Numbered from the stretch's first letter, positions 10,366 to 27,046 are shown. The stretch is 64,000 bases of DNA from an uncultured Burkholderiales bacterium (GCA_964438505.1 CAYTKN010000001.1:181509-245508), one strand, 5' to 3'. The notes: generated by a model from the sequence alone, not told the origin. Numbers and translations are program-made.

Positions 10366-10443
10366 GACTGTTGCCACATACTATGGAGTATATATAGTAT
10401 GTTATAAACATAGTATGTGTTCCAATAGTATTGGAGCGACCAC
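10366..10443. promoter_or_regulatory. AT-rich junction with two palindromes upstream of the ATPase gene
   Basis: Striking AT-rich 78 bp in a GC-rich window. Inverted repeat CACATACTATG (10375-10385) / CATAGTATGTG (10409-10419). Palindrome CCAATAGTATTGG (10422-10434). A GGAG RBS precedes ATG 10444. Confidence 0.45.
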
Positions 10444-11877
10444 ATGGGCGACTTCGAGGCGACCACGCTCGACGACTTCTTCGACAGCACCGCTGACCGT
10501 CCCGTCCTCGGGTTGCTCTACGGGCGCCGACGCATCGGGAAGTCGACCCTCCTCGTCCAGCAGGTGGAGTCCCGTGGCGGCTTCTACTTCGAGGCCACGC
10601 GCGTGGAGTCCGCGGTGCAGTTGGACCGGCTCGGGAAGGCGCTCGGGGCGCACCTGGGGGTCGGTACGATCGCCCTGGCCGACTGGGAGGAGGCGTTCGA
10701 GGCGTTGTTGCGTCTGGGCTCCGGTGCACCCGTCCCGATCGTGCTCGACGAGTTCGGCCACGTCCTCGAGGCCGACCGCTCCGTCGACTCGGTCCTCGCA
10801 TCCGCGCTCGGCCCCGGAGCTCGTGCCCGGTCTTCGAGTCGGGCTCGCCTGGTGCTGTGCGGCTCGGCGATCGCGCTGATGCGGGCCCTGACCGCGGGGG
10901 AGGCGCCGCTTCGAGGGCGTGCCGGCATCGAGCTGGTCATGCGTCCGGACGACTACCGGGTCGCCGCGACCCGCCTCCCCGAACCCGACGACCTCGAGAC
11001 CGCGGCGCGCGTCTTTGCCGTCATCGGGGGCGTGGTCGGGTACGCGACCGACATGGTGAACTTCGATCTCCCGTCGGGGCGCGACGACTTCGACCGCTGG
11101 GTGGCCCATCGGGTGCTCTCCCCGGCAGCGACCCTGCACCGCGAGGCCACCACGCTCCTAGCGGAGGACCCGACCCTCGCCGGGCGCGGTTCGATGTTGC
11201 ACCACAGCCTCCTCGGGGTCATCGCCAACGGCTCCGTGACCGCCGGAGCCATCGCCAACCGGCTCGGGAAGCAGGTGTCGAACCTGGCTCCGGCGCTGAA
11301 CCGCCTCGTCGAGGCGGGGTTCGTGACCCGACACGAGGATCCGGTCCGGCACCGACGGCCGCTGTACGCCCTCGCCGACCCGTTCCTCCAGTTCCACTAC
11401 GCGGTGCTCGAACCCCACGGCCCGGCGCTGCGGGATCGTGATCCGTCGGAGGTCTGGGAGCGACGCCTCGTCGACGTGTTCGGCTCGCAGGTGCGGGGAC
11501 CGGTGTTCGAGGAGCAGGCCCGCACCTGGGTTCGACGGTTCGCGAGTGCCGAGACCCTCCCGGTCCGTGAGCACGTCGGGCCCTCGCACGTGACCGTCGA
11601 GGGTGTCGATCACCAACTCGACGTGGTGGTCACCGGCTCCGACCCGGATCCGGCCGAACGCCCGATCGTGGCGATCGGTGAGGCGAAGGCGGGTGAGACC
11701 GTGGGCACCGGCCACCTGCGACGCCTCGAGCGCGCCCGCGCGGCGTTCGGCCCGAAGGCGGCGGGGGCGAAGCTGCTCGTGTTCGCGGTGGCGGCCGACC
11801 CGGAGGTGGTCGAGGACGCCGAGGCGCGTCCGGACGTGGAGATCGTCGATCTGCCGCGTCTGTACCGAGGCGGATGA
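10444..11877 (+). CDS. AAA-type ATPase, archaeal-ATPase/DUF234-like architecture
   Basis: P-loop GRRRIGKST and Walker B IVLDEF. A long C-terminal region ends in a nuclease-fold-like segment (IVAIGEAKAGE). Confidence 0.65.
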   Translation: MGDFEATTLDDFFDSTADRPVLGLLYGRRRIGKSTLLVQQVESRGGFYFEATRVESAVQLDRLGKALGAHLGVGTIALADWEEAFEALLRLGSGAPVPIVLDEFGHVLEADRSVDSVLASALGPGARARSSSRARLVLCGSAIALMRALTAGEAPLRGRAGIELVMRPDDYRVAATRLPEPDDLETAARVFAVIGGVVGYATDMVNFDLPSGRDDFDRWVAHRVLSPAATLHREATTLLAEDPTLAGRGSMLHHSLLGVIANGSVTAGAIANRLGKQVSNLAPALNRLVEAGFVTRHEDPVRHRRPLYALADPFLQFHYAVLEPHGPALRDRDPSEVWERRLVDVFGSQVRGPVFEEQARTWVRRFASAETLPVREHVGPSHVTVEGVDHQLDVVVTGSDPDPAERPIVAIGEAKAGETVGTGHLRRLERARAAFGPKAAGAKLLVFAVAADPEVVEDAEARPDVEIVDLPRLYRGG

Positions 11878-11899
11878 CCGGAAGACGCCGGCCGCCGCG

Positions 11900-12826
11900 T
11901 CATGGGTCGTGGTCGGGTGGGGGTCGGGTGGTGCGGCGTCCTTCGTGGTGGTGGGGGCATCGGAGTCGACCGTTGGTCTGTTCGGTGAACCCGCCGGCAG
12001 CGTGGGGGTGGGTGTGGTCGACGTCGCAGCGTTCCGCGGGTTCGTCGCAGTAGTCGTGGGTGCATTCGCGGTCGCGGACTTCGACGGCGCGGCGGGTGGC
12101 GCCGGTGAAGAGGCGTTGCTTGACGCCCACGTCGAGGACGCGGGAGGCCCCGTCGAAGACGACGCGTTCGATGTCGGCTTCGGTGAGCCACCCGGCGAGC
12201 GCGCCGGGGGTGACCACGGTGCCGTCCGCGAGCTCGCAGACCCGCCCCGCGAGGGTCGGGTAGTCGACCAGGACGGTGAACAGCGGCCGGGGCCGCTTCG
12301 CGTCGGCGGGGGTGCTGGCGGCGCGGGTGGCCATCTCGACGAGCGCGTCGAAGCGGCGCTGCGCCGGAGTGCGCGCCAGGTGCTCGACACGCGTGTCGTC
12401 GCCGTGTTGCGCTTTGGCTTGGGTCCAGTCGTCGGCGAAGAGCTCGTCGTCGATGCGGGCGAGCACCTCCGCGACGATCCCACCACGGATCGCGTCCGCC
12501 TGCCCATCGAGCACCCACGACCCGTCGAGGGTTTGGGAGACGTGCAGGCGGCGCTGCTCCTGGGCTGTGGCCGCGTCGGCTTCGACGCCGTCGGGATCGG
12601 CGAGCTGCTCCCAGTAGGCGACCGCGCGCTGCCACTGCGCGAACGTCAACTCACGGGCCTGGTCGACGAGCAACGCCTCGTCGCGGGCGAAGAGCTCCGC
12701 GCGCTCCGGGGTCGCGGCGCGCGCCAAACGCTCCACGTGCGCGACGGTGACCGCCCCCGCTGACAGCGCTTCGGCGGTGGCGGGCATCTCGCGGAGCCGT
12801 CGCGCGAGGCGCACCCGACGGCGGCC
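11900..12826 (-). repeat. inverted repeat arm A (927 bp) shared with 24111..25037
   Basis: The encoded 308 aa differ at 11 positions from copy B, and the last 168 aa are identical. The off-frame track ORFs 12060..12263 and 24674..24877 are identical. Confidence 0.85.
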
Positions 12827-13180
12827 CTCGGCTTTCGGCAACCGGCAGCGTCGCGCCAGCCACGCCCCCGCCGAGCGCGCCCGATCCACCAGCCACACCC
12901 GCCGCGCGTCCCAGCGGCCCACCACCCGAGCCTGCGCAGCCTCGAAACGGGCGCGCACCCCCTCCAACCCCACCACCAACTCCGACAGCTCGGAGGCCGA
13001 CAGCGCGTCCACATCCAACCCGGCGAGCGCATCCACCCCCGCCGACAACCCCTCCAGCACCGCCCCGGGCGCGTCGTCCGGCAGCGCCACCGGCGCCACC
13101 GGCCCGGCAGGGCGCGCGGACAGCACCGGTCGCGCCGGCGCCTCGGTTCCCTGGAGCTCGGCCTCGTCGATCACGAACAC
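11900..13180 (-). CDS. DUF222 / HNH endonuclease (REP13E12-like), full-length copy A
   Basis: GTG start. C-terminal HNH-like RDRECTHDYCDEPAERCDVDHTHPHAAGGFTEQTNGRLRCPHHH. Near-identical second copy at 24087..25037. Confidence 0.85.
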   Translation of the reverse strand: MFVIDEAELQGTEAPARPVLSARPAGPVAPVALPDDAPGAVLEGLSAGVDALAGLDVDALSASELSELVVGLEGVRARFEAAQARVVGRWDARRVWLVDRARSAGAWLARRCRLPKAEGRRRVRLARRLREMPATAEALSAGAVTVAHVERLARAATPERAELFARDEALLVDQARELTFAQWQRAVAYWEQLADPDGVEADAATAQEQRRLHVSQTLDGSWVLDGQADAIRGGIVAEVLARIDDELFADDWTQAKAQHGDDTRVEHLARTPAQRRFDALVEMATRAASTPADAKRPRPLFTVLVDYPTLAGRVCELADGTVVTPGALAGWLTEADIERVVFDGASRVLDVGVKQRLFTGATRRAVEVRDRECTHDYCDEPAERCDVDHTHPHAAGGFTEQTNGRLRCPHHHEGRRTTRPPPDHDP

Positions 13181-13402
13181 ATGTTCGCACCCGCCTGTGA
13201 CAAGAACACCGCCAAACCGGGCCCACCCGCCAGAACATCGAGATTCTTTGGATTCGGAGCGGGACCCGTTCAGAGCTGCTGGTGATGTGGCGGCGGGGTT
13301 CGAGGGAGACGAGCCAAGTGGCGCCGGCGACCGAGATCAGGGGGAGGAGTTGTCCGCGGCCTGACGGGAGCCGGCAATCGGTTCCGCGTCGGCCCGGGCG
13401 GG

Positions 13403-15214
13403 TCAGCGGTGGCGGGCGAGGCGGCGGGTGGCCTCCACGTAGAGCATGCGGGCGGCGAGGGCGAGGAAGAGGATCGCCACCAGGGCGGTGACGGTGGTCG
13501 CCGACCAGGGGGAGCCCGCTTCGTCGTCGGCGGAGGGGCGGTCGACCGCGAGGGGCTGGCGCGGCATCCCGGACGACCCATCCTCACCGTCGGTCGCCTG
13601 GGTGCCGCCGCTGTCGCCGCCTGCGGTCGACGCACCGCCTGGGGTGCCCGGCGTCGCCGTGCCTCCGGCGTTGCTCGTCGTGCCGCCGCCGGTGCTGCCG
13701 GTGCTGGTGTCGGTGGTGCCGCTGGTGTCGCTGCCGGTGACGAGCGAGAGGTCGCCGCCGTCGCCGCTGTCACCCCCGGAGTCGCCCGAGGTGGTCGGGT
13801 CCCAGAACGCGCCGCCGGAGGATCCGCCGGTGCTGCTGCCGGACCCGTCGCTGGTGCCGCTGTTGTCGCCGGTGCCGCCGCCACCGCTGGTCGTGTCGCT
13901 ACTCGTGCCGCCGCCGGTGCCGCTGGTGCCGCCGGTCGAGCCGCCGGAGCCACCGGTGGTCGACGAGCCGTCGTCGCCGGGTTCGGTCGAGGGCGAGGAG
14001 CCGGAGGTCGTGGTGGTCGACGACGACGAGGAGCCGGAGGTGGTCGTGGTCGTCGAGCTGGTCGAGCTCGACGAGGAGGGGCTGTCGGAGTCGGCGCGGC
14101 AGTCGGTCATGGCGCAGTAGACGTCGAGGACGCCGCCGGTGGCGACCTTGCCGTCGAGCGCGTCCACCGGGCGGACGTTGTCGAGGATGCGCGCCTTGAG
14201 CTCGCCGACCGACAGGCCGGGCTCGTGGGCGAGGATCAGCGCCGCCGCGCCGGAGACGAACGCCGTCGACAGCGATGAGCCATCCGCGATGCAGTCCTCG
14301 TTCTGGGGGGTTGTGCAGATGTTCTCGCCGGGAGCGGCGAGGTCGACCGACTTCGCGCCGTAGTTGGATCGGGTCCACAGCTCGTCGTCGTGGTCGGTGG
14401 CGGCCACACAAAGCTGGTTGGCCATTCCGAAGTTGCACGGGTATTGGGGGTCTGCGTCGTTGTTGTCGCCGGAGTTGCCCGCCCCGGTGACGACGAGGAT
14501 GCCGTGGTCGCCAGCCTTGGCGATCTTGTCCTCGAGGGTTTGGTTGTTGCTCACCCAAGCGCCCCAGGAGGCGTTGATGACGCGCACGTTCACCCCATCC
14601 TGCTTGGCGCGGATCACCCAGTCGAGCGCCTCGCTCACGGTTCCGATGTCCTTGGAGCTCCCATAGGTGACCCCCATGATCGCGGTGGTCCAATTCACCC
14701 CGGCGAGACCGGTCTCGTTGTGGCCCACGGCCCCCATCACGTGGGCCATATCGCTGCCGTGCCCGCCACCGTCGCGATTGGGCGCGCACTCCTGAGTGGG
14801 GACGTGGTAGCCGTGCGTGCCGGCGGGGCACTTGTTGACCTTTTCGGAGCTCTCCCACACGTTGGCGGCGAGGTCCTGGGCTTCGTAGTCGAGGTCCTGG
14901 TCGATGAGGCCGATCACCACCGATTTCGAGCCGGTGGTGAGCCCCCAGGCCTCCGTGGCGTTGATGTCGGCCCCGGGGGTGCCCTCGTCCCAGTCGGGGC
15001 CCATCTGGCCGGTGTTCTCGAGGGCCCACTGGTCGTCGTACATGCGGTCGTTCGGGCGGCGCTCGGAACCGGCCACCACCGCCACCGGCATCAACAGGGC
15101 GACCACAGCGGAAACCGCCAGCGTCGCAAGCCCGTGCTGGTTGCTCGGGCGCGGACCGCCACCCGACCCGCTCGGGGCCGGGTGGCGGTCGCGGGTGCCG
15201 CCTCGGCGGATCAT
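13403..15214 (-). CDS. secreted subtilisin-like S8 serine peptidase with Ser/Thr/Gly-rich stalk and C-terminal membrane anchor
   Basis: Catalytic motifs VVIGLIDQD (Asp), GGGHGSDMAHVMGA (His), INASWG (Asn), DGSSLSTAFVSGAAAL (Ser). About 190 aa of S/T/G low complexity. Terminal TM VTALVAILFLALAA. Starts 10 nt after the upstream gene stop. Confidence 0.85.
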   Translation of the reverse strand: MIRRGGTRDRHPAPSGSGGGPRPSNQHGLATLAVSAVVALLMPVAVVAGSERRPNDRMYDDQWALENTGQMGPDWDEGTPGADINATEAWGLTTGSKSVVIGLIDQDLDYEAQDLAANVWESSEKVNKCPAGTHGYHVPTQECAPNRDGGGHGSDMAHVMGAVGHNETGLAGVNWTTAIMGVTYGSSKDIGTVSEALDWVIRAKQDGVNVRVINASWGAWVSNNQTLEDKIAKAGDHGILVVTGAGNSGDNNDADPQYPCNFGMANQLCVAATDHDDELWTRSNYGAKSVDLAAPGENICTTPQNEDCIADGSSLSTAFVSGAAALILAHEPGLSVGELKARILDNVRPVDALDGKVATGGVLDVYCAMTDCRADSDSPSSSSSTSSTTTTTSGSSSSSTTTTSGSSPSTEPGDDGSSTTGGSGGSTGGTSGTGGGTSSDTTSGGGGTGDNSGTSDGSGSSTGGSSGGAFWDPTTSGDSGGDSGDGGDLSLVTGSDTSGTTDTSTGSTGGGTTSNAGGTATPGTPGGASTAGGDSGGTQATDGEDGSSGMPRQPLAVDRPSADDEAGSPWSATTVTALVAILFLALAARMLYVEATRRLARHR

Positions 15215-15224
15215 CGACGTCCGC

Positions 15225-16466
15225 TCATGCGTCGGGTGGTTCCTCGTCGGGGTGCCAGGCGATCACGGTGCCCAGCGACACGCTCGGGTTCGGTTCCTCG
15301 AAAGGTACGACCACCCGGGTGGCGGCCGAGTCGGCCTCGAGGCACAGCCACGCCTCCTGGCCGTTGGCGTAGGCGTCGACCATGTAGTCGACCGGGCCGA
15401 TCCCACCGTGGGCGATCGGGTGGTTGCCGGGCACCAGGTTGGGTGGGTCGCTCGTCGTCGTGCACGCCGTCGAGTCGCCGTCGGTCGACGGGGTCCCCAC
15501 GCCGCCGCCGGAGATCTCGGGATCGGCGCCGCTGGAGTCGATCACCAGCTTGCCGCCGTAGCCGTCGCCGCTGCCGGTGTCTTCCACGCGGGTGCACACC
15601 CACACCTCGTCGGAGGACGGCTGATGCGTGTAGAGCTTCGTGTACACCCCCTCGGTGGTGGAGTCCACGACGCGGGTCCCGCCGTTGAGTTCACAGTCCT
15701 GCGACGGCGTTCGGATGTCACTTGGTTCGAAGTCGATGAGCGGGTCGAGGTCAAGGAGCGGGTCGGTCGCGGGACTCGTCATGCTGAAGGTGCCCGTAAG
15801 TCGTTGAATGTTGGCAGCCGCCACTTCCGTCGCTTCACCAGTGAAGTCGAGGTCGACAGGAGCCACCGCCCACGCTTCATCGCAGGGAAGGTCACTCTTA
15901 TCGTCCCAGCAGACGCTCAGGTCGGTGACGACATCGAGCTCCCATGTGTCCTTACCGTCGAGGCCGACGCGCCGGTAGGTGCCCACCGCGTCAGGACCCA
16001 ACTTGGCTTCGGGGGTTAGATCACCACCGGCAAGGGATCCAGCGATGTCGTAAAAGAGGAATCGCTCGAAATTGATGCTGTCGATGGTGCCTTCCTCGGT
16101 GAGGCTTGTCCAGGATCCCGAGGTGGTGCTCCCGGTGAAACACGGAGCCTCCTCTTGAAAGCAGAGCAGTTCAATACCGAGCGGGCCACCATCACGTGTC
16201 CATACCCCGTGAACGTATTGGAATTCCTGCGCTTCCCAGGCTGTGGGCGTGCCCGTACGCTTCCAGTCACCGTCCCATTTCCCGGTAACGATCTCGGTCG
16301 TGGCCTTCACGTCGGTGGGGTCGGCCTGCGCGTCGCCGACGGGGGTCAGCGCCAGCATGGCCACCGCCAGCGTGACCGTGAGGAGTCGCCGCAGCGCATG
16401 TGACCGCCTCCTCCCCGTCGTGGTCTCCCGCCGTTCCCGCCGTGTGGTGCTTCTCGTCGTCTGCAC
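15225..16466 (-). CDS. secreted protein of unknown function, co-operonic with the S8 peptidase
   Basis: Track ORF 15225..16724 trimmed to GTG 16466. Arg-rich N-region plus hydrophobic core ...RRRSHALRRLLTVTLAVAMLALTPVGDAQA (possibly Tat-like). Mature part has 8 Cys. Visibly lower GC. Confidence 0.55.
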   Translation of the reverse strand: MQTTRSTTRRERRETTTGRRRSHALRRLLTVTLAVAMLALTPVGDAQADPTDVKATTEIVTGKWDGDWKRTGTPTAWEAQEFQYVHGVWTRDGGPLGIELLCFQEEAPCFTGSTTSGSWTSLTEEGTIDSINFERFLFYDIAGSLAGGDLTPEAKLGPDAVGTYRRVGLDGKDTWELDVVTDLSVCWDDKSDLPCDEAWAVAPVDLDFTGEATEVAAANIQRLTGTFSMTSPATDPLLDLDPLIDFEPSDIRTPSQDCELNGGTRVVDSTTEGVYTKLYTHQPSSDEVWVCTRVEDTGSGDGYGGKLVIDSSGADPEISGGGVGTPSTDGDSTACTTTSDPPNLVPGNHPIAHGGIGPVDYMVDAYANGQEAWLCLEADSAATRVVVPFEEPNPSVSLGTVIAWHPDEEPPDA

Positions 16467-16582
16467 GTGGATCCTCCCCGTGGTTCGGCGTGCTCGCCGA
16501 AGGCCCGTTCCGGCACCGCCCGGGGCCACCTGCCGTGGCGGCGGGTGCAGGTGGTGAGTGTGCAAGCACCGTTCGCAGCTTG

Positions 16583-16602
16583 CATCCCCCGATCGGGGGA
16601 TG
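16583..16602. promoter_or_regulatory. perfect 20-bp palindrome CATCCCCCGATCGGGGGATG (island motif, site a)
   Basis: 116 nt upstream of start 16466. Related copies at 18380, 20231, 21641 and 22833. Confidence 0.45.
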
Positions 16603-16736
16603 TGCCGGTGTCGGCGCGGTGGGGACACTGCTCGCGGTCCTCGCGTGGGTTCCCGAAAGCCGGATCGAGGTTCGGTTCGCACGCGATCGTCGTGTTGTTG
16701 TCGCCGGTGCGACGGTACAGACACGTCAAGGAGTTT

Positions 16737-16793
16737 TGAACCGGTTCATTTGCGCGTGTTGGGGGGTCCAACACGCGCTCTGAGCGCGTGTTG
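16737..16793. promoter_or_regulatory. palindrome TGAACCGGTTCA plus three alternating GCGCGTGTTG(G) arms (alternative hairpins or a multi-site operator)
   Basis: GCGCGTGTTGG 16752-16762, CCAACACGCGC 16768-16778, GCGCGTGTTG 16784-16793, with 5-nt spacers. Confidence 0.4.
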
Positions 16794-16848
16794 ACACCAC
16801 GAATTCGGGACGCACCATGACGGTCTCCTCGAACGCCGCGTCGGCCGG

Positions 16849-18270
16849 TCATCGGTTCTCCCGGTCCGACGCGGCCCGCTCCGCTCGCCTGGCACGCCCC
16901 CACGCCGGGTCACCCGGTGGGGGGAGCGAGTCGGGGTCGGCCCAGTAGAGGGAGAGCGCCCAGCCGAGGCTGGCGACGTCCACCGGGTTGGCGAGATCGA
17001 GGCCGCAGCGCGATTCGATCTGGCGGAGCTTGCGGCGCACCTCCTTGGTCCCCACCCCGAGCCGCCGCGCCGTGGCGGCCCAGTTCCCGCGGGTGTCGCG
17101 CAGCGCGGTGAGCGCCTCGAGGTCGCGCCGCGCCCGGTCGTGGCGGCGGGCCAGCGCGGGACCGACGACCGCGTCGACGTCGAGGACGCGGGCGTCGTCG
17201 TCGGGTTGGCTCGCCGCCCACACCAGCGCGAGGTCGAAGGCGCGGAGCACCCGGCCGCGCGGCCGGAACCGCTCCAGGACGCCGAGACGCCGGCGTAGGC
17301 CCCGGTAGACGCCGGCGAGCTCCTCGAGCGCCGCGACCGGCTCGGCGACCGCCACCAGCCCTGCCTCCTCCAGGCGCGGCGTCAGCGTCGCGACCACCTC
17401 GTCCCAGGTGCGCTCCCGCAGCGGCACCACCGCCACCACGTGCGGGTGCGGGTCCGCCACGGTCGGGGCGACCAGGCCGAGAGCGACCACCGGGGTGAGC
17501 GTCACGACCCGAGCGCGCAGGTCCCGTTCCCCCACGACGCCGCCGTCGTCTCGGGCGGCTGGGTCGGCCGGGTCACGTCCGAGCGGGGCGACGACCAGCA
17601 GGGCCGCCGGCGCCTCGAGCGTCGAGGCGCACCGCCGTGCGGCGACGGCCACCTGCTCGTCGCTGTCGAAGTCGCCGGCGAGCAGCGAGGCGAGGAAGTC
17701 GCGGCGGGCCTCGGCGGCGCGCACCGCGTCCGGCCGGTGGTAGCCGCGCTCGAACGCCGCCCACTGGGCGGTGCGGAACTCCTGGGCGTGCAACGCCAGA
17801 TGCCGGGACGCCGCCCACACGTCCACCCGCCGCGGCGACCACTCCTCGGTCAGCACCGCCAGCTCGTCGTAGAGGTACTCGAACCCCGCGGCGTTGGCGG
17901 CGCTCGTCGCCGCGTGCAACCCCTCCAGGGGCACCCCCTGGTGCGCCCGCTGCTCACCCACCGCCTCGAGCACCTCCACCTCACCGGCGGAGAGCCCGCG
18001 GCCCTCACGCAACGTCCGCAACAGCAGGCTCGCCGTGCGGGTCACCCCGAAGCGCACCGCCTCGAGCGCGTCACCCGAGAGGTTCCGGTAGCCGGGTGCC
18101 GCGTCGCGCACCGCGGCGAGGATCGCCTCGACCAACCCGTCGAGGTCACCCTCGACGCGCTCGGCCAACATCCGGCAGCACTCCGCCGGGCTCACGTGCA
18201 GCGGCACCGCCTCGCTGCCCGACGAGCGCCCCGCCGCACCCGAATCGTCGTCGTGCTTCGCCATCGCCAC
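16849..18270 (-). CDS. PucR/CdaR-like transcriptional regulator (paralog 1)
   Basis: Large N-terminal sensor-like region. C-terminal HTH WAATARRLGVGTKEVRRKLRQIESRCGLDL. The tail ...YWADPDSLPPPGDPAWG is shared with 20276..21625. Confidence 0.6.
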   Translation of the reverse strand: MAMAKHDDDSGAAGRSSGSEAVPLHVSPAECCRMLAERVEGDLDGLVEAILAAVRDAAPGYRNLSGDALEAVRFGVTRTASLLLRTLREGRGLSAGEVEVLEAVGEQRAHQGVPLEGLHAATSAANAAGFEYLYDELAVLTEEWSPRRVDVWAASRHLALHAQEFRTAQWAAFERGYHRPDAVRAAEARRDFLASLLAGDFDSDEQVAVAARRCASTLEAPAALLVVAPLGRDPADPAARDDGGVVGERDLRARVVTLTPVVALGLVAPTVADPHPHVVAVVPLRERTWDEVVATLTPRLEEAGLVAVAEPVAALEELAGVYRGLRRRLGVLERFRPRGRVLRAFDLALVWAASQPDDDARVLDVDAVVGPALARRHDRARRDLEALTALRDTRGNWAATARRLGVGTKEVRRKLRQIESRCGLDLANPVDVASLGWALSLYWADPDSLPPPGDPAWGRARRAERAASDRENR

Positions 18271-19893: not shown

Positions 19894-20169
19894 TCAGATA
19901 TCGACCGTGCAGACGAAGATCTCCCACGAGATGCCGAACGCCTCGCCGGATTTCGGCCCGTAGCTCTCGGCGCTGCAGTCCCAGTCGTCGCAGTAGTCGC
20001 GGATGGTCTCGGTGGTCGTCGAGCCGTCCTTGCCGAGCTCGACGTACCCACAGTTGGTCGGATGGTGATTGGTGGCGTCCGCCGGCGAGCCCGAAAAGCC
20101 AATGCCGAGGGCTGTGGCCACCGCGATCAGCGCCACCAGGGCGCGCGCCCATATCTTCCGAATCTCCAT
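19894..20169 (-). CDS. small secreted Cys-rich protein (about 60-aa mature peptide)
   Basis: ATG 20169 inside ORF 19894..20223, preceded by GAAGGAGG. Signal peptide MEIRKIWARALVALIAVATALGIGFSGSPADA. Mature part has 4 Cys. Clearly lower GC. Confidence 0.5.
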   Translation of the reverse strand: MEIRKIWARALVALIAVATALGIGFSGSPADATNHHPTNCGYVELGKDGSTTTETIRDYCDDWDCSAESYGPKSGEAFGISWEIFVCTVDI

Positions 20170-20230
20170 ACCGAGCCTGCCTCCTTCGACGAAGTGCGAA
20201 GACATGTTAGGAGAACATTGCACTCATCTA

Positions 20231-20275: not shown

Positions 20276-21625
20276 GTGAGTAGGGGCCGGGACACATCCG
20301 AAGAGCGGCTCGGCTGGATCGGCGTCGCGACGATGATCGTCCTCCGGGAAGAGGTCGACGACGTCGTCGCCGGCGTGGTCAAACGGGTCCGCTCGGCGTC
20401 CCCCGAACCGCGACGAGCCGTCTCCGTGGTCGTCGAGAGCCCCGCGTACACCGCCTTCGTCCGCCGCGTCGCCTCCATCGCCGGCAACGCGCTCGCCGGC
20501 CGGTCCGAACGGGTCGCCGAGGAGATCGTCACCGCGTGCGACGAGGCCATCGACCTCGTGACCGACGGCGCGTCGACCGACCTCGTCCGCCGCAGCATCC
20601 ACGCCACCACCGCCGTCGCGCTCGACCGAGTGCTCAAGCACGTCGACTCCGAGCGCGACCACCCGACCGGCGCCCGGGTGCGATCGGCCGTCGGCGCGCT
20701 CAACGACTGCGAGTTCGAGCTGCTCGCAGCCTTCGAGCGCGCCGTGCGCGCCGTCGAGGACGACGAGGGCACCCGAGCGCAGCGCCTCCGCGAGTCGTTC
20801 CTGCGCGCCGTGCTCGAAGGGCCCGTGCGCGACCCCCTCGCCACCACACGCCGCGGAGAGCGCCTCGACCTCGACCTCACCCCACCCCTCGGCCTCGTGC
20901 TGCTCGTCGACGCGGCCTCCCGCAACTCCCGCAACTCCCGCAAGTCCCGCGACCCGTCCACACCCGAGTCGTTCGAGGAGCGCGTCCAGCGATGCGCGCG
21001 CCGCCCCGACCACCGCCTCCTGCCACCCGTGCTCGTCGACCCCGACCCCGGCGAACCGCTCTGCGCGGTGCTCGCCGTCCCCGCCTACCGCCCTCCGCTG
21101 GCCGCCGAGGTCGACGAGCAGCTCACCGCCGCCTGTGACGAGCTCGGGCTGCTGGCCGTGCGCGCCTCCGCCGCCGACCTCGCGGAGGCCCCCGTGCTCC
21201 ACCATCGCCTCCGCCTCCACGGCCCCCTCCTCGAGCGCTGCGCACGACACGTCGGTGCCTTCACCACCCTCGACTCGCTCTTCCCCTACCGCCTCGTCCA
21301 GGAGCTCACCAGCGCCGAGACCGACGAGCTGCTCCGTGAGCAGGTCGGCCCGCTCGTGACGACCGTCCGCCACGCACGCGAGCGGGTGGCGACCTGGAAG
21401 CTCCTCGTGCGCGAGCGCCTCACCGACCCCGAAGCCGCCGAACGCCTCGGCATCGGGATCAGCGCCATCTCCAAGCGCCGGCGGGTCATCGAGGCGATCC
21501 GCGGCGACCTGAGCACCGGCCTGTTCCGCTCCCAGACGGCCTCCTACGCCTACGAGCTCTGGGAGGACGACCTCCCGCCCCCCGGCGACCCGTGGTGGCG
21601 CGGCGAGGAATCCACCGGGGGGTGA
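20276..21625 (+). CDS. PucR-like transcriptional regulator (paralog 2)
   Basis: C-terminal HTH PEAAERLGIGISAISKRRRVIEAIRGDL. The tail ...YELWEDDLPPPGDPWWRG matches the tail of 16849..18270. Internal SRNSRNSRKSR arises from a 9-bp tandem repeat. Confidence 0.55.
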   Translation: MSRGRDTSEERLGWIGVATMIVLREEVDDVVAGVVKRVRSASPEPRRAVSVVVESPAYTAFVRRVASIAGNALAGRSERVAEEIVTACDEAIDLVTDGASTDLVRRSIHATTAVALDRVLKHVDSERDHPTGARVRSAVGALNDCEFELLAAFERAVRAVEDDEGTRAQRLRESFLRAVLEGPVRDPLATTRRGERLDLDLTPPLGLVLLVDAASRNSRNSRKSRDPSTPESFEERVQRCARRPDHRLLPPVLVDPDPGEPLCAVLAVPAYRPPLAAEVDEQLTAACDELGLLAVRASAADLAEAPVLHHRLRLHGPLLERCARHVGAFTTLDSLFPYRLVQELTSAETDELLREQVGPLVTTVRHARERVATWKLLVRERLTDPEAAERLGIGISAISKRRRVIEAIRGDLSTGLFRSQTASYAYELWEDDLPPPGDPWWRGEESTGG

Positions 21626-21640
21626 GAAGACCTCGACTTC

Positions 21641-21659
21641 TTCACCCGATTGGGGGAAG
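21641..21659 (+). promoter_or_regulatory. island motif site c (TTCACCCGATTGGGGGAAG)
   Basis: 109 nt upstream of start 21769. The following bases GCAACGCGCGGGGC resemble those after site d. Confidence 0.4.
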
Positions 21660-21768
21660 CAACGCGCGGGGCTTCTCGAAAACACTGTGAAAGTGACGAG
21701 TTCCGGCAATTCCCCGGCGCGAGAACGGCGATCTCCACCCCTCGACCGCGCCGCGACCGCTCCGTAGC

Positions 21769-22725
21769 GTGCCCGCCATGGACGACGACATGACACCCCG
21801 AGACCCTCACCCGGACCCTCCGATGGACGCGGTTCCGGCCCGCAACGGCCACCGCTTCGTGAGGACGCGGGAACGCCCCTCGGTCGACGAGCGGATCACC
21901 GACGCGCAGCGGCTCTGCACGCAGGTCTACGACCGCGGCGGGTCGCTCCACGACCTCGACCCGATCGACTCGCTCGACACGCTGGCGACCATGGGCGACG
22001 CCGAGGGGGCGATCGAGGCGATCGAGCGCATGCGCGCCGCCGGGCTGACCGTCGATCCCGACGACCACCTCATGGTGCTCGTCAGCTACCACGTCCACGC
22101 CCGCGGCGAGGACGCCGAGCGCTACCTGCGAGGCCTCCCACCGGACGAGCTGACCACCGCGCACCTCGCCCTCGTCCTCTCCGCGTACGCCATCACCGGC
22201 CGCGCGGACGAGGCCGAGGCGCTCTACCTCGACTACGAGGACTGGCCCATGGCCGACGGCGAGGACTGCCACGTCGCCCTGCTCTACGCGTTCAGCTTCG
22301 TCGGCGAGCCCCGGCGCGCCCGCGAGTGGTTCCGGACCGTCACCGAGCGTGACGAGCAGCTCGCGACCCCCCGGATGCTGGTCGCCCTCGTGCAGGCCCA
22401 CTCCAGCCCCGAATCCCTCGACGAGCTCCGCGCCCTGCGCGACGAGCTCGACGAGGAGACCCGCCGTGACCCCGAGGTGGCGGGCTCGCTCGTCAGAGGG
22501 TTCGCCTGGGCCGGCGACCCCGAGCGCGCCGAGGAGCACCTCCCCGACGCCCTCGCCGGCCTCGGCCCCGACGACGAAGAGGACGGCCGGCACCTCGTCG
22601 TCTGCTGCATCGGCGCATACCGGTCGTCCGCCGACGAGGACATCGACCGGCTGCTCGCCATCGCCGAGGACGCGGGGGTCGGGCTCAGGGACCCCAGGCT
22701 CACACCCGGGTTCCGAGAGCCCTGA
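21769..22725 (+). CDS. acidic helical-repeat protein (TPR/PPR-like, about 35-aa repeats), paralog 1
   Basis: Repeating helix-pair units, e.g. HLMVLVSYHVHARGEDAERYLRGLPPDELTTA / HLALVLSAYAITGRADEAEALYLDY / HVALLYAFSFVGEPRRAREWFRTV / MLVALVQAHSS.... No signal peptide. Confidence 0.5.
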   Translation: MPAMDDDMTPRDPHPDPPMDAVPARNGHRFVRTRERPSVDERITDAQRLCTQVYDRGGSLHDLDPIDSLDTLATMGDAEGAIEAIERMRAAGLTVDPDDHLMVLVSYHVHARGEDAERYLRGLPPDELTTAHLALVLSAYAITGRADEAEALYLDYEDWPMADGEDCHVALLYAFSFVGEPRRAREWFRTVTERDEQLATPRMLVALVQAHSSPESLDELRALRDELDEETRRDPEVAGSLVRGFAWAGDPERAEEHLPDALAGLGPDDEEDGRHLVVCCIGAYRSSADEDIDRLLAIAEDAGVGLRDPRLTPGFREP

Positions 22726-22832
22726 CCTCGCCGCGAGATCCCACCCCCTCGCGTTCCGCTGTGAGCCGAGCCTGTCGACGAGCGGCGGGGCGCGGGGGGT
22801 GGGAACCAGGGGTCGGAATGTCGTCGATCTCG

Positions 22833-22851
22833 TTCACCCGATCGGGGGATG
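22833..22851 (+). promoter_or_regulatory. island motif site d (TTCACCCGATCGGGGGATG)
   Basis: 119 nt upstream of GTG 22971. Confidence 0.4.
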
Positions 22852-22970
22852 CAGCGCGCAGGACCCCGTGATCCGGCCCCGAGAAGGGCGGATTCGCGCA
22901 CCCGGCCCGACCGACAAGTGGTGGTCTCCCCCCTCGAACGAGCCCGCTCGCCTGCGTAGGGTCCCCGTAC

Positions 22971-23873
22971 GTGACAGCGTCGCAGCGTGAAGCCCGCCAG
23001 GCAACCGGGCACCGTGAGCACCGCGAGAGGACGAGCGAGATGGCGGGCGACGAAGCCGACGAGCACGAAGAGCCACCTCGCCGGCCGCGCCTCAGCGACG
23101 GGCGAGCCAAAGAGCGGACCCTGCGGGCCCGCCTCCGCACCTGCGCGGTGGTCGGCGACGTCGACGGCGCGCGCGCCGCCGTCATCTGGATGGAGCGCTT
23201 GGAGTACCCGGTCGGCGACGAGGAGCACCTGCTGGTGCTGATCGCCCACCAGGCGAGCGACCGCGCCGTGGAGGCCGAGGAGTACTTCCGCTCCATCCCC
23301 GAGGACCAGCGGACCATGGCCCACTTCCGCTCGGTGATGGCCACCTACACCTTCAAGCGCCGCCCCCACGACGTCGAACGCCTCTACCTCGAGCTCGAGT
23401 CGACCCCCGACGCCCTTGACGACGACTGCCGCAGCCTGCTCCTCTCGGCGCTCGCCTTCGAGCACGAGGACGCCCGGGCGCGGGTGTGGTTCCAACGCTT
23501 CGAGCAGCAGTCCGACGAGCCGCCCGGCCCGGGGCTCGTCGCGCACCTGATCAACGCCCACGCCTACCCCGGAGCGCACGACCAGCTCGTGGCGATCCAC
23601 GACAGGCTGGACGAGGAGCTGCTGCACGAGCCCGAGGTGGCATCCACGATGGTGCGCGCCCTCGTCGCGGCGGGTGACCCCGAGCGCGCCGAACGCTGTC
23701 TCCGCGACGCCCTCGCCGTCGTCGAGGAAGACGAGGAGCGCGAGCGGCTCGTCGGCGACTGCATCCGGGGTCGCCGGCGCGACCGTGAGGCCGTCCGCCG
23801 GCTGCTCGCCACCGCCGAGGAAGCCGGTGTCGACGTCGAACACCTGGGGTCAGGCTTCGGCATCCTGCCCTGA
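22971..23873 (+). CDS. acidic helical-repeat protein (TPR/PPR-like), paralog 2
   Basis: Same repeat architecture and colinear similarity to 21769..22725 (HLLVLIAHQASDRAVEAEEYF..., GDPERAERCLRDALA vs GDPERAEEHLPDALA). The start is uncertain; ATG 23040 is the alternative. Confidence 0.5.
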   Translation: MTASQREARQATGHREHRERTSEMAGDEADEHEEPPRRPRLSDGRAKERTLRARLRTCAVVGDVDGARAAVIWMERLEYPVGDEEHLLVLIAHQASDRAVEAEEYFRSIPEDQRTMAHFRSVMATYTFKRRPHDVERLYLELESTPDALDDDCRSLLLSALAFEHEDARARVWFQRFEQQSDEPPGPGLVAHLINAHAYPGAHDQLVAIHDRLDEELLHEPEVASTMVRALVAAGDPERAERCLRDALAVVEEDEERERLVGDCIRGRRRDREAVRRLLATAEEAGVDVEHLGSGFGILP

Positions 23874-23918
23874 CCCGAGCGCGGGGGACGAGCGCGGGGG
23901 AGGGCGGACGACGGCGGC

Positions 23919-24069
23919 TCACACCTCGATCACGTCGAGGCCTGCCACCGAGACGTGATCACGGTCCTGGGTCACGATCGGGACCTCCAGGGCGAGCGCG
24001 GTGGCCGCGATCCACGAGTCGTTGATTGGCACGCGCTCGCCGGCATCTCGGAGGAGGACGTTGTTGTCA
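23919..24069 (-). pseudogene. C-terminal remnant of a PIN-domain (VapC) toxin gene
   Basis: The minus strand reads ...SDNNVLLRDAGERVPINDSWIAATALALEVPIVTQDRDHVSVAGLDVIEV*, a typical VapC C-terminus. The N-terminal two-thirds are missing. The break coincides with the 5' end of HNH copy B. Confidence 0.6.
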
Positions 24070-24086
24070 GAGGCGGGTGCGAACAT

Positions 24087-25037
24087 GTGTTCGTGATCGA
24101 CGAGGCCGAGGGCCGCCGTCGGGTGCGCCTGGCGCGGCGCTTGCGTGAGATGCCCGCCACCGCCGAAGCACTGGCGGACGGTGCGATCACGGTGGCGCAC
24201 GTGGAGCGTTTGGCGCGCGCCGCGACCCCGGAGCGCGGGGAGCTCTTCGCCCGCGACGAGGCGCTGCTCGTCGACCAGGCCCGTGAGTTGACGTTCGCGC
24301 AGTGGCAGCGCGCGGTTGCCTACTGGGAGCAGCTCGCCGATCCCGACGGCGTCGAAGCCAATTCGGCCGCAGCCGAGGAGCAGCGCCGCCTGCACGTCTC
24401 CCAGACCCTCGACGGGTCGTGGGTGCTCGACGGGCAGGCGGATGCGATCCGCGGTGGGATCGTCGCCGATGTGCTCGCCCGCATCGACGACGAGCTCTTC
24501 GCCGACGACTGGGCCCAAGCCAAGGCCCTCCACGGCGACGACACGCGTGTCGAGCATCTGGCGCGCACCCCCGCGCAGCGCCGCTTCGACGCGCTCGTCG
24601 AGATGGCCACCCGCGCCGCCAGCACCCCCGCCGACGCGAAGCGGCCCCGGCCGCTGTTCACCGTCCTGGTCGACTACCCGACCCTCGCGGGGCGGGTCTG
24701 CGAGCTCGCGGACGGCACCGTGGTCACCCCCGGCGCGCTCGCCGGGTGGCTCACCGAAGCCGACATCGAACGCGTCGTCTTCGACGGGGCCTCCCGCGTC
24801 CTCGACGTGGGCGTCAAGCAACGCCTCTTCACCGGCGCCACCCGCCGCGCCGTCGAAGTCCGCGACCGCGAATGCACCCACGACTACTGCGACGAACCCG
24901 CGGAACGCTGCGACGTCGACCACACCCACCCCCACGCTGCCGGCGGGTTCACCGAACAGACCAACGGTCGACTCCGATGCCCCCACCACCACGAAGGACG
25001 CCGCACCACCCGACCCCCACCCGACCACGACCCATGA
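24087..25037 (+). CDS. DUF222 / HNH endonuclease (REP13E12-like), copy B with a 330-bp in-frame internal deletion
   Basis: VFVIDEAE|GRRRVRLARRL... joins codon 8 to codon 119 of copy A. The HNH C-terminus is identical to copy A. The upstream extension of the track ORF (23955..) is antisense to the VapC remnant. Confidence 0.75.
   Translation: MFVIDEAEGRRRVRLARRLREMPATAEALADGAITVAHVERLARAATPERGELFARDEALLVDQARELTFAQWQRAVAYWEQLADPDGVEANSAAAEEQRRLHVSQTLDGSWVLDGQADAIRGGIVADVLARIDDELFADDWAQAKALHGDDTRVEHLARTPAQRRFDALVEMATRAASTPADAKRPRPLFTVLVDYPTLAGRVCELADGTVVTPGALAGWLTEADIERVVFDGASRVLDVGVKQRLFTGATRRAVEVRDRECTHDYCDEPAERCDVDHTHPHAAGGFTEQTNGRLRCPHHHEGRRTTRPPPDHDP
24111..25037 (+). repeat. inverted repeat arm B (927 bp) shared with 11900..12826
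   Basis: See arm A. The short 5' segment 24064-24110 also matches about 13157-13196. Confidence 0.85.
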
Positions 25038-25066
25038 GGCGGCGTCGGGAGGACTCGGCACCTTGT

Positions 25067-25273
25067 ATGCTGATCTGCATGCAATCCACGAGCGTGCGGA
25101 TCGACGCCGCGACGCACGAGGAGCTCAAGCGACTCGCGGACGAGTTGGGAACGACCGTCGGTCAGGCCGTCGCGGCCGCCGTGCGGTGCATGCGTCAGGA
25201 CCGCGTCGGTCAGGAGCTCGCCGCACCCTTGCGCGATGACGAGTCCGCGTGGCTCGATGCTGACCTCGGGTGA
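25067..25273 (+). CDS. ribbon-helix-helix antitoxin (MazE-like) of TA pair 1
   Basis: The tail of track ORF 24302..25273 reads M(LIC)MQSTSVRIDAATHEELKRLADELGTTVGQAVAAAV.... It overlaps the downstream toxin start. Confidence 0.7.
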   Translation: MLICMQSTSVRIDAATHEELKRLADELGTTVGQAVAAAVRCMRQDRVGQELAAPLRDDESAWLDADLG

Positions 25274-25601
25274 CGTCCTCGATCTCGATCTCGGTGTGCC
25301 CGAGGGGCGGGAAGCCGGCTTCAGGCATCCCGCGGTGGTGGTGACGGCTCAGCGTGTCCTGGACGCCTCTCCGTCGGTCGTGCAGGTCGTCCCACTCACC
25401 ACGACGGTGCGGCGGTTCGGGTCGGAGGTGACGATCGAACCCGACCGGCAGAACGGTCTCGCCGAGCGCTCGGCCGCGCAGTGCCAACACGTCCGGGCCA
25501 TCTCCCGCCACCGCGCTCGGTCGGTTCGCGGCAACGTCGGAGCCGTGGCGCTGAACCAGATCCGCGAGACGATCGGGTTGATCCTCGACGTGGGCCCCTG
25601 A
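25257..25601 (+). CDS. MazF/PemK family toxin (TA pair 1)
   Basis: MLTSGDVLDLDLGVPEGREAGFRHPAVVVT...VVPLTTT...QCQHVRAIS is the typical MazF pattern. The track start at 25236 is the alternative. Confidence 0.75.
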   Translation: MLTSGDVLDLDLGVPEGREAGFRHPAVVVTAQRVLDASPSVVQVVPLTTTVRRFGSEVTIEPDRQNGLAERSAAQCQHVRAISRHRARSVRGNVGAVALNQIRETIGLILDVGP

Positions 25602-25611
25602 TCGACGGTGT

Positions 25612-25959
25612 CTACAACGCCAGGTGGAGCCGGAGCGCTTCGTCGAGCGCGTGCAGGAGCTCGCCTCGAACGGCGCCGGCGGTCCCGCCGACGCGTTCCA
25701 CGGCGACGGAGCGCACCTGTTCGGCCTGAGCCTTGGAGTCACGGTCGAGCCCCGTCTCGGCGGCCGGGAGCAGCACCTGGAACGGGTAGACCCGGGCGAC
25801 GTTCGAGGTGACCGGAACGACCGTCACGACTCCCCGGCCGAGGCGCTCGCTCGTCGTGTTGGCGGCATCGTTGCTCACCACGACCGCCGGACGACGCTTG
25901 TCGGCCTCGGCGCCGCGAACCGGACCGAGGTCGACGAGGCGGATCTCGCCGCGGCGCAT
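25612..25959 (-). CDS. MazF/PemK family toxin (TA pair 2)
   Basis: [31 protein letters not shown]...VVPVTSN...AEQVRSVAVERV. The track ORF 25612..26190 is trimmed to ATG 25959. Confidence 0.8.
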   Translation of the reverse strand: MRRGEIRLVDLGPVRGAEADKRRPAVVVSNDAANTTSERLGRGVVTVVPVTSNVARVYPFQVLLPAAETGLDRDSKAQAEQVRSVAVERVGGTAGAVRGELLHALDEALRLHLAL

Positions 25960-26174
25960 CAGGACCGACCGTCGGCCGCGGTGACCTCCCACGCCTGCTC
26001 GTCGTCGCCCGCCCATTCTTCCCAGGCGTCCTCGTACGCGGGGCCGAGTTGCGACGCCCGGAGAAGTCGCACGGCCCGGTGCACGACCGCCGAGCGCGAG
26101 GCGACCCCCTGCGCCTGGGCGTAGGCATCCAGGAACTCGACGTCTTCCTCGGGCAGGCTGACGCTCAGCTTCAT
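25959..26174 (-). CDS. ribbon-helix-helix (CopG/MazE-like) antitoxin (TA pair 2)
   Basis: [38 protein letters not shown]. Its stop overlaps the toxin start by 1 nt. Confidence 0.8.
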
Positions 26175-26180
26175 ACTTCG

Positions 26181-26202
26181 ATACTACCAAGAGTAGTAGT
26201 AT
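26181..26202. promoter_or_regulatory. palindromic operator candidate ATACTAC-N8-GTAGTAT between divergent TA operons
   Basis: Lies in the AT-richer 83-bp gap between starts 26174 (-) and 26258 (+). Confidence 0.4.
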
Positions 26203-26257
26203 TTGGCTACCGGGACATCGGCCATCGTTCGTAGCACAATCATGGTATTCTCATGCC

Positions 26258-26494
26258 ATGACTCGGACCCGTGTCAGCACGACGGTCGACGAAGCGCTCC
26301 TCGCCGAAGCGCGCCGTGTTCGTGGGGACTCCACAGACGCCGCGCTTCTCGACGCTGCGCTCGAAGCGCTCCTCGCGCGCGAGCGGGCGGCGGAGCTCGA
26401 TGCCTCCTACAGCGCGTACGACGAGCGCCCCATCGACACCGAGGACGACTGGGGTGACCTCGCGTCGTTCCGCGAGGCCGCTGCGACATCGTGA
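26258..26494 (+). CDS. antitoxin (MazE-like) of TA pair 3
   Basis: [21 protein letters not shown].... It has an acidic C-terminus and a 4-nt overlap with the toxin gene. Confidence 0.7.
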
Positions 26495-26814
26495 GCACCC
26501 CTGCCAGAGGTGAGGTGTGGTGGTGCGAGCTCCCCGAGATCGGCCGACGACCCATCGTGGTGCTGTCGCGGGACGCTGCGATCCCGCGGCTGCGCAGAGC
26601 GCTGGTCGCGCCCTGCACCACCACGATCCGCGGCCTGGCGAGCGAGGTCGCACTCGAGCCCGGTGAGGACCCGGTCCCCCGAGCGTGCGTGGCGAATCTC
26701 GACTCGGTCGAGAGCGTCTCGACCACCGTTCTCGTCGAGCGACTCGGACGGCTGGCTGACACCAAGATGAGAGAGCTGTGCGCCGCCCTGGAGGTCGCTG
26801 TCGACTGCCGGTGA
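26491..26814 (+). CDS. MazF/PemK family toxin (TA pair 3)
   Basis: [24 protein letters not shown]...VAPCTTT...[12 protein letters not shown]. Confidence 0.75.
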
Positions 26815-26821
26815 CGCCCCG

Positions 26822-27011
26822 CCGGCGGGTGTTGCAGGGGAGTGGTAGCGGGAGGAGAGGGGAAGTGCCCGCAGCAGGATTCGAACCTGCGCACCCGGCT
26901 CCTCGGAGGATGCTGCCCGGTGCGGAGAGCACCGGCGGGTGTTGCAGGGGAGTGGTAGGGGAGGAGAGGGGAAGTGCCCGCAGCAGGATTCGAACCTGCG
27001 CACCCGGCTCC
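26822..27011. repeat. direct duplication (81 and 80 bp, period about 109 bp) covering the 3' half of tRNA-Arg plus 43 nt downstream
   Basis: Unit 1 at 26822-26902 and unit 2 at 26932-27011 are identical except for one 1-nt indel. Unit 2 runs into the intact tRNA. Confidence 0.85.
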
Positions 27012-27046
27012 GGAGGCCGGTGCTCTATCCCCTGAGCTATGCGGGC
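26975..27046 (-). tRNA. tRNA-Arg (anticodon CCG)
   Basis: Reverse complement is GCCCGCA TA GCTC AGGGGATA GAGC A CCGGC CTCCGGA GCCGG GTGC GCAGG TTCGAAT CCTGC TGCGGGC A. This is a full cloverleaf of 72 nt, and CCA is not encoded. Confidence 0.9.

Follow-up and report, generated by a model that had tools for sequence, protein, structure and literature searches.

A probably accreted, integrase-less plasticity zone on the 3' side of tRNA-Arg(CCG) in an Acidimicrobiia-like genome

Is the accessory DNA that lies beside a conserved tRNA gene the remainder of one integrative element, or the outcome of many separate gains and losses? This question is raised by a block of about 16.7 kb (positions 10366 to 27046) situated between a GDT1-family gene and tRNA-Arg(CCG) in a stretch of 64,000 nucleotides deposited under an uncultured Burkholderiales bacterium (GCA_964438505.1 CAYTKN010000001.1:181509-245508); this whole stretch is referred to as the window, and all positions are counted from its first letter. 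The initial annotation of the block left the choice between a decayed integrative element and an accreted island. The verdict reached here favours accretion: the region is read as a plasticity zone without an integrase, a patchwork of cassettes that evolve separately, and as a genomic island it is of an ordinary kind. More precisely, the block probably constitutes the larger part of a lineage-specific plasticity zone, which extends from a PolX-type DNA polymerase gene to the 3' side of tRNA-Arg(CCG) and represents a multi-step mosaic rather than one element.

The window has a GC content of about 73% and is Acidimicrobiia-like. Its ArgS is at most 73% identical to that of any representative genome, and the top matches come nearly all from metagenome-assembled genomes of Acidimicrobiia. 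Genes were called by the GC content of third codon positions (GC3) and Pfam matches.

A variable interval between conserved flanks

The right flank is a conserved actinobacterial block, in which tRNA-Arg(CCG) and gmd, both on the minus strand, are followed by a small uncharacterised gene, a response regulator gene, argS, lysA, hom and thrC. Of 80 related loci, 58 (Kitasatospora included) have a minus-strand tRNA-Arg(CCG) upstream of argS. The argS-lysA-hom-thrC synteny is conserved, while the DNA beyond the tRNA is not. In the family-level relative L169 (GCA_964615175.1), argS, the response regulator gene, the uncharacterised gene, gmd and the tRNA are separated by 6.7 kb from PolX, P450 and UbiA. 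Order and orientation are those of the window, and both flanks are 72-78% identical (PolX 73%, P450 73%, UbiA 78%). The distance from PolX to the tRNA amounts to 19.7 kb in the window as against 6.7 kb in L169, where the filling comprises an uncharacterised gene, CSD, a methyltransferase, a luciferase-like gene and an acyltransferase. Other relatives carry yet other genes beyond the tRNA: two ParE/Phd pairs and then unrelated genes in L164 (gmd 87% identical), a transpeptidase in L168 and another gene in L171. None of the fillings of these four loci has homologs in window positions 7307-26973. Gene order and protein identity together show that the flanks are conserved in the family-level relative around an unrelated filling; hence, the interval is variable at family level and its left edge is PolX, not GDT1. 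The boundary originally set at 10366 accordingly holds at species level but not at family level, where the conserved flank ends at PolX (7306). The left part of the interval and its border comprise the following features.

5588..7306, plus strand: PolX-type DNA polymerase (Pfam), the last left-flank gene that is syntenic in L169 (UbiA-P450-PolX)
7436..10365, mixed strands: three genes, encoding a 377-aa uncharacterised protein, a PEP-mutase-like protein and GDT1 (Pfam, GC3, relatives)
10366..10443, plus strand: AT-rich promoter/operator-like patch (overlap with the lowest-GC 78-mer, heptamer array)
10444..11877, plus strand: ATPase_2/AAA protein with a MarR-type winged helix-turn-helix (wHTH) domain (Pfam; PADLOC PDC-S27)

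The order on the left is UbiA, P450, PolX, the 377-aa gene, the PEP-mutase-like gene and GDT1. The gene for the 377-aa protein (within 7436..10365) and the PEP-mutase/ICL-like gene (8697 to about 9500) are on the minus strand, whereas GDT1 occupies about 9757-10365 on the plus strand (PF01169, E 9.5e-36) and, as initially stated, ends at 10365. All three have a high GC3, yet lie within the variable interval when L169 is compared; GDT1 is common to the window and the close relative L163. The AT-rich patch of 78 bp that was reported behind GDT1 has a GC content of 36%, and the 78-nt stretch with the least GC in the window (10358-10435, 33% GC) overlaps with it. The patch harbors the heptamer ATAGTAT/ATACTAT at 10378, 10394, 10410 and 10425 (spacing 16, 16 and 15 nt; one inverted, three direct), which is absent elsewhere in the 64 kb, and this array (10378-10431) is located directly upstream of the wHTH-ATPase gene. 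Of the previous designation of the gene product as a DUF234-type ATPase, the ATPase_2/AAA assignment with a MarR-type wHTH stands, but Pfam DUF234 itself gave no match. PDC-S27, a candidate not validated as a defence system, matches the protein with an E-value of 1.7e-13 over profile positions 21-330 of 474 and is the sole system reported by PADLOC. Relatives of the ATPase are carried by 141 plasmid records.

The close relatives are represented by short contigs. L163 is 91% identical from GDT1 to window position 10401 (blastn), and its MAFFT alignment reveals weaker similarity up to about 10460, which takes in the operator motifs and the beginning of the ATPase gene (start codon and codons one to five). 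Heptamers 1-3 and five codons at the start of the ATPase gene are conserved in L163, though that gene is replaced there: a DUF433/PIN_10 pair and a VapBC pair follow in its place, before homology resumes at 11887 in the 3' flank of copy A of a DUF222 repeat (see below). Judged from these alignments, the difference is a cassette swap between conserved flanks, by which the ATPase and two toxin-antitoxin (TA) pairs replace each other.

At the right end, L166 and L167 are 95-97% identical to the window through gmd, the tRNA and the third MazF gene; hence, the third MazEF pair, which adjoins the tRNA in both contigs with 97% nucleotide identity, is resident. An apparent divergence jump beyond the tRNA in L167 (86% blastn identity) was rejected as the artefact of a 40-nt gap, the true identity being 97%. 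Both contigs are devoid of a tRNA-fragment unit, which in the window adjoins the tRNA, and of most of its 41-nt flank. Within the aligned ends, the close relatives are shown to keep the ends of the block and to differ by one cassette and the tRNA-fragment unit. In summary, the block is neither conserved in all relatives nor indistinguishable from its flanks in composition, and is accessory as initially supposed: at the same locus it is absent or replaced in L169, L164, L168 and L171, and both of its ends are present at 91-97% in close relatives.

Wider searches yielded little in addition. In the GTDB species set, the best ArgS match (73%) lies on a 2.8-kb contig and none of 80 loci has the left-flank genes of the window within 10 kb. 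A scan of JGI metagenomes with GDT1 gave a best match of 54% with no neighbours in common, and exact-protein look-ups of window genes returned only short Logan contigs of one run (SRR9010616). The Logan short-read contigs of the source sample (e.g. L162, equivalent to window positions of about 10389-11929, and L081) break off in three places, namely the AT-rich patch, the DUF222 repeat and the vicinity of the gmd start; hence, the window spans places unresolved by short reads. At its other margin, the start of the window cuts a purE gene (1-390, minus strand). In the distant relative L032, where gmd adjoins the tRNA too, purE (5685-6203) is located only 2.5 kb past tRNA-Arg; its use as a boundary marker was dropped, since this relative is too distant (ArgS 52%).

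Composition and cargo of the block

The 16 genes of the span have a GC3 of 0.80-0.94 with a median of 0.88, in comparison to a median of 0.955 for 40 genes outside (Mann-Whitney p = 8e-6), and the span holds 5 of the 8 lowest-GC patches of the window. The three less GC-rich patches that had been noticed by eye are real, with a GC content of 0.64 at 15.5-16.5 kb, 0.63-0.66 at 18.3-18.6 kb and 0.53-0.59 at 20.15-20.3 kb. For tetranucleotide usage, each module was compared with flank samples of matching size (300 null samples). The only outlier is a pair of genes for an S8 subtilase and its partner protein, with a z of 5.6, or 7.0 when the low-complexity linker is masked, which is reached by 0 of 300 null samples; the remaining modules have z values of 0.3-2.1. 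This cassette alone is compositionally foreign, while the regulators, the small secreted proteins and the tetratricopeptide repeat (TPR) paralogs look native in composition. The cargo is listed below, apart from the DUF222 repeats.

13403..15214, minus strand: membrane-anchored S8 subtilase, mycosin-like (Pfam S8, 5e-36; TIGR03921 below its cutoff)
15225..16500, minus strand: secreted partner protein with a signal-peptide-like segment and no Pfam family (GC3, L172 homolog, tetranucleotides)
16849..18270, minus strand: PucR-type HTH regulator (Pfam)
18565..19848, plus strand: uncharacterised protein of about 428 aa (frame backed by the GC3 phase from about 18700; start uncertain)
19894..20223, minus strand: small Cys-containing protein with a signal-peptide-like N-terminus
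20276..23873, plus strand: 449-aa protein and two paralogous TPR proteins (gene calls, repeat family; flank-like tetranucleotide usage)
23919..24059, minus strand: C-terminal remnant of VapC (PIN match, E 2e-4), cut at the start of DUF222 copy B
25067..26814, both strands: three MazEF-type TA pairs (Pfam), as follows
about 25067-25273 (antitoxin) and 25236-25601 (MazF), plus strand: MazEF pair 1
25612-25962 (MazF) and 25959-26174 (antitoxin), minus strand: MazEF pair 2
26258-26494 (VapB-like antitoxin) and 26491-26814 (MazF), plus strand: MazEF pair 3

The S8 protein consists of an N-terminal hydrophobic segment, a Ser/Thr/Gly-rich linker and a C-terminal anchor. Its gene extends to 13403 on the minus strand; a coding-like plus-strand open reading frame (ORF) at 13446-14120 (GC3 0.94) was rejected as a gene and is the antisense shadow of the linker. 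The partner gene lies upstream and completes the two-gene cassette; at 0.80, its GC3 is lower than that of any other large gene in the island. The closest relative of the cassette is found in the same gene order in a 58%-GC organism (L172 123-2781), with 58% identity for S8 and, for the partner (372 aa in L172), 50% over 160 aa (E 2e-45); there, toxin-antitoxin genes (Phd, HicB-like and PIN) come next after the cassette. The homolog search for S8 did not return the window's own protein, so that the absence of close S8 homologs in relatives is uninformative.

Further inwards, the divergent intergenic region after the small Cys-containing protein has 53-59% GC. The 449-aa protein gave no match in the plasmid search and carries a C-terminal segment that reads, by eye, as HTH-like. 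The TPR genes (21769-22725 and 22971-23873) are paralogs, whose C-terminal ends feature a 46-nt stretch of 83% identity. With respect to the TA modules, the initial annotation is borne out: the PIN match marks the C-terminal part of VapC, and three PemK/MazF toxins (PF02452, E 7e-15, 5.7e-25 and 2e-15) are each accompanied by a small upstream antitoxin ORF. The antitoxin ORFs match RHH_1 and VapB_antitoxin and overlap or abut the toxin genes, in line with a predicted TA function. The three MazF proteins are mutually only 32-34% identical.

Repeats at the tRNA and within the block

Two kinds of repeat bear on how the block may have been built, namely a partial copy of the tRNA and a pair of DUF222/HNH units.

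11888..13207 (ORF 11900-13180), minus strand: DUF222/HNH repeat unit, copy A (PF02720, E 8.7e-23)
24060..25049 (ORF 24093-25037), plus strand: DUF222/HNH repeat unit, copy B (PF02720, E 1.5e-17)
26822..26973, minus strand: tRNA-fragment unit (38-nt tRNA copy, anticodon-arm pieces, doubled 41-nt flank)
26974..27046, minus strand: tRNA-Arg(CCG) (ARAGORN; Rfam 69.5 bits), the anchor upstream of gmd, the response regulator gene, argS, lysA, hom and thrC

A six-frame Pfam scan agrees with the earlier statement that no integrase or transposase is left: domains of integrases, transposases, resolvases, Rep and Tra proteins were absent from 134 six-frame stop-to-stop segments of at least 70 aa (E <= 0.01), a length below which recombinase remnants would escape. 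Likewise, neither the six frames nor the called genes contain Xis, FtsK/SpoIIIE-like transfer or phage structural genes. In 43 relatives, at most 1 of 92 ORFs within 1.3 kb of tRNA-Arg is possibly an integrase. The tRNA had also been termed a hotspot; frequent occupation of the site by integrases is not seen.

The duplicated 3' half of the tRNA reported for the end of the block is present as an exact 38-nt repeat of its 3' part at 26865-26902. This copy spans the anticodon to the tRNA's 3' end, is preceded by rearranged anticodon-arm pieces, and is enclosed by the doubled 41-nt downstream flank (26822-26863 and 26934-26973). No further copies of this tRNA part were detected in the 64 kb by a search with up to 3 mismatches and by blastn-short, and Rfam yields the tRNA only, plus an antisense artefact. 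Lying 109 bp off the tRNA instead of at the opposite end, the 38-nt copy cannot delimit an island of 16.7 kb; the fragment unit is the mark of a local event that the closest relatives lack.

Similar units adjoin the tRNA on its downstream side once in L013 (7965-8036), once together with two 13-nt repeats in L164 (11116-11230) and three times in tandem in L169 (3931-4196). With the exception of the third unit of L169, which is degenerate, the copies match the tRNA of their own genome without a difference for the terminal 25-38 nt or more. In all four of these divergent lineages, the window included, the units have 7-8 nt inserted in the region of the anticodon stem. A hairpin within the unit, whose arms covary between the lineages, was considered as a selected structure and rejected, because both arms appear to be derived from each genome's own anticodon stem. 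In GCA_964615175.1, a 100-N scaffold gap lies inside tRNA-Arg (L169 3816-3915) and a second contig (L170) ends right after the tRNA; this is probably an assembly problem caused by the tandem units.

More extended arrangements are seen in other sequences. In L008, a 45-nt direct repeat of the 3' part of tRNA-Arg (2173-2217 and 8071-8147, 5.9 kb apart) encloses a cassette of two glycosyltransferases, a sulfotransferase and an ABC exporter, with no Pfam integrase domain in the four ORFs tested. In the viral contigs L180 and L181, the same part of the tRNA stands directly beside a tyrosine integrase, which is the appearance of an intact element at this tRNA site.

Both DUF222 genes, the two HNH copies of the initial annotation, carry a C-terminal HNH-like motif, visible in translation as CDVDHTHPH...N...CPHHH, while Pfam HNH itself gave no match at E <= 0.01. 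The copies form an inverted repeat with arms of 945 nt (11888-12832 and 24105-25049) that are 96% complementary, plus a further 51 nt, and enclose 10.85 kb. Relative to copy A, copy B has an in-frame deletion of 324 bp, and the last approximately 470 bp at the 3' end are 100% identical between both. Copy A retains its 3' end and flank in L163; copy B starts exactly where the vapC remnant breaks off. An SOS box of the actinobacterial LexA type overlaps the start codon of copy A (CGAACACATGTTCG at 13174-13187) as well as that of copy B (CGAACATGTGTTCG at 24080-24093). The pattern CGAACNNNNGTTCG, i.e. a perfect CGAAC-N4-GTTCG, has just these 2 matches in 64 kb, with 0.13 expected by chance. The 13E12-family genes of Mycobacterium tuberculosis, which have been termed insertion elements, possess a LexA SOS box at the promoter (PMC3381160); they are LexA-regulated and drive inversions (PMC3381160, PMC13157036). 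The two copies described here probably undergo gene conversion and could invert the segment between them. A DUF222 homolog of 33% identity is also encoded about 1.4 kb from tRNA-Arg(CCG) in another metagenome-assembled genome of Actinomycetota (L033 7453-8457).

Origin of the block and its place among known systems

The two halves of the initial proposal fare differently. Accretion is supported by modules that differ in composition, by the divergent MazF proteins and by the swapped cassette, whereas a single decayed element finds no support, given that a distal tRNA fragment is lacking and that the ends and DUF222 copy A are present at 91-97% nucleotide identity in relatives. In the proposed course of events, tyrosine-integrase elements recombining in the anticodon loop of tRNA-Arg would once have integrated here and left tRNA 3' fragments, while their integrases and most of their DNA were lost. 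Thereafter, homologous recombination between conserved flanks would bring cargo in, remove it or swap it. The GDT1-operator junction and the 3' end of DUF222 copy A may form one such pair of flanks, and present turnover looks like such an exchange between common flanks. The three MazEF pairs and the VapC remnant may have accumulated because TA modules resist loss. The SOS-box-bearing, 13E12-like copies would contribute gene conversion and possibly inversion of the 10.85 kb between them, and one of them abuts, and probably truncated, vapC.

Several observations weigh against this mosaic. Apart from S8 and its partner, every module remains within the tetranucleotide range of the flanks, and the low GC3 can also be explained by weak codon selection in poorly expressed native genes. 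The contigs of close relatives cover the ends of the block and not its interior (13-25 kb). Inversion and gene conversion between the DUF222 copies are putative events, and the fragment unit duplicates the 41-nt flank as well, which a simple attL/attR model does not predict. Moreover, as integrases are rare beside the tRNA, past integration is read from the tRNA fragments only.

A rival reading is that of an ordinary, vertically inherited chromosomal region of weakly expressed genes, where the break in synteny reflects only the distance of the available relatives. Both ends are indeed present at 91-97% in close relatives, most modules have native tetranucleotide usage, and integrases are rare at this tRNA. 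Nevertheless, such inheritance is unlikely: L169 keeps both flanks at the same identity around a wholly different filling, a cassette is swapped at 91% nucleotide identity, the S8-partner cassette is a strong compositional outlier whose nearest relatives belong to an organism of 58% GC, and TA modules, repeats and a gene remnant lie densely in the region. Somewhat less credence still is given to a single decayed integrative element in tRNA-Arg, be it a prophage, an actinomycete integrative and conjugative element (AICE) or an integrative island, of which the integrase and the distal att site have eroded. It would account for the position at the tRNA's 3' end, for the copied 3' half, for the GC3 lowered across all genes, and for known elements that pair this part of the tRNA with a tyrosine integrase, as in the viral contigs. 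On the other hand, the only tRNA copy in 64 kb is 109 bp from the tRNA, the six frames are free of integrase, Xis, Rep, FtsK-like Tra and phage structural domains, composition is heterogeneous, an internal cassette differs between close relatives that have both ends in common, and the MazF proteins are unrelated paralogs (32-34% identity).

Very improbable is a composite-transposon-like unit, in which the two inverted DUF222/HNH copies would have mobilised the 10.85 kb that they enclose as a single block. Inverted repeats of about 1-1.3 kb and 96% identity at both ends of the segment, the naming of 13E12 repeats as insertion elements (PMC3381160) and the truncated vapC next to one copy would fit. 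However, DUF222/HNH proteins are no known transposases, no transposase domain was found, the alignment discloses no target-site duplication or terminal inverted repeats at the outer ends, the inner segment is compositionally heterogeneous, and copy A is in place in L163 beside a different cassette. A more speculative proposal, for which the chances are slim, regards the 3' flank of tRNA-Arg(CCG) in this Acidimicrobiia clade as a capture site, where integrases with genes at other places would act in trans, insert and stack integrase-less cassettes and leave arrays of rearranged pieces of the anticodon arm and the 3' half, the 16.7-kb block being one product. It was prompted by the 5.9-kb cassette of L008, whose four tested ORFs gave no integrase match, and by the one to three tandem fragment units in the window, L013, L164 and L169; if true, the block would stem from a trans-mobilised cassette system and not from ordinary islands with a lost integrase.

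With the multi-step mosaic as the preferred reading, the locus documents genome plasticity in a poorly sampled class: with few exceptions, the Acidimicrobiia relatives found here are metagenome-assembled genomes or short assembly contigs. The tRNA-Arg-argS anchor, conserved at great depth, gives way to lineage-specific cargo, and the exchange of cassettes appears to alter this cargo even at 91% nucleotide identity between relatives.

Tyrosine-integrase islands, as catalogued in Islander, extend from a regenerated tDNA to the fragment displaced from it (PMC4383910). The block resembles such islands in its position on the 3' side of a tRNA, in the direct orientation of a 3' tDNA fragment starting in the anticodon loop, in an intact tRNA gene at one end, and in accessory cargo including TA modules. 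It differs in that the fragment is 109 bp from the tRNA and not at the other end, that the 41-nt flank is repeated too, that no integrase was found, and that the 16.7 kb are not bounded by att sites. Annotators should therefore be wary of taking the repeat of a tRNA half next to a tRNA, with nothing else, as the border of an island. Among AICEs, pSAM2 and SLP1, for instance, reside in high-GC actinobacterial hosts and target the 3' part of tRNA genes by identity segments of about 40-60 nt. A high-GC genome of the actinobacterial type and a tRNA 3' part with identity of this 40-60 nt type, as in L008, are found here as well, in contrast to the int, xis, rep, FtsK-like tra and Nudix genes of AICEs, which were not detected.

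TA-rich defence or plasticity islands, whose cassettes turn over between conserved flanks, provide another parallel. Several unrelated type II TA pairs are present, the position of the PDC-S27-like ATPase is taken by two TA pairs in a close relative, and L164 has its ParE/Phd pairs at the equivalent place beyond the tRNA. Unlike in defence islands of this type, there is a single PADLOC match, to an unvalidated candidate, and much of the cargo consists of secreted proteins and regulators instead of defence genes. Compared with the 13E12 (REP13E12) family, the DUF222 repeats have an Acidimicrobiia-like host, only two visible copies, no inserted phage, and a predicted LexA control. They resemble that family in the DUF222 domain and, as far as the translation goes, in a C-terminal HNH-like motif; they are also multicopy, with tracts that are nearly identical, have a LexA-type SOS box at the promoter, and stand in an inverted arrangement that would permit inversion (PMC3381160, PMC13157036). 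Taken together, DUF222/HNH repeats of the mycobacterial 13E12 type that bear SOS boxes are not confined to Mycobacterium, and their promoter logic appears to be the same, which supports an old link of these repeats to the DNA-damage response.

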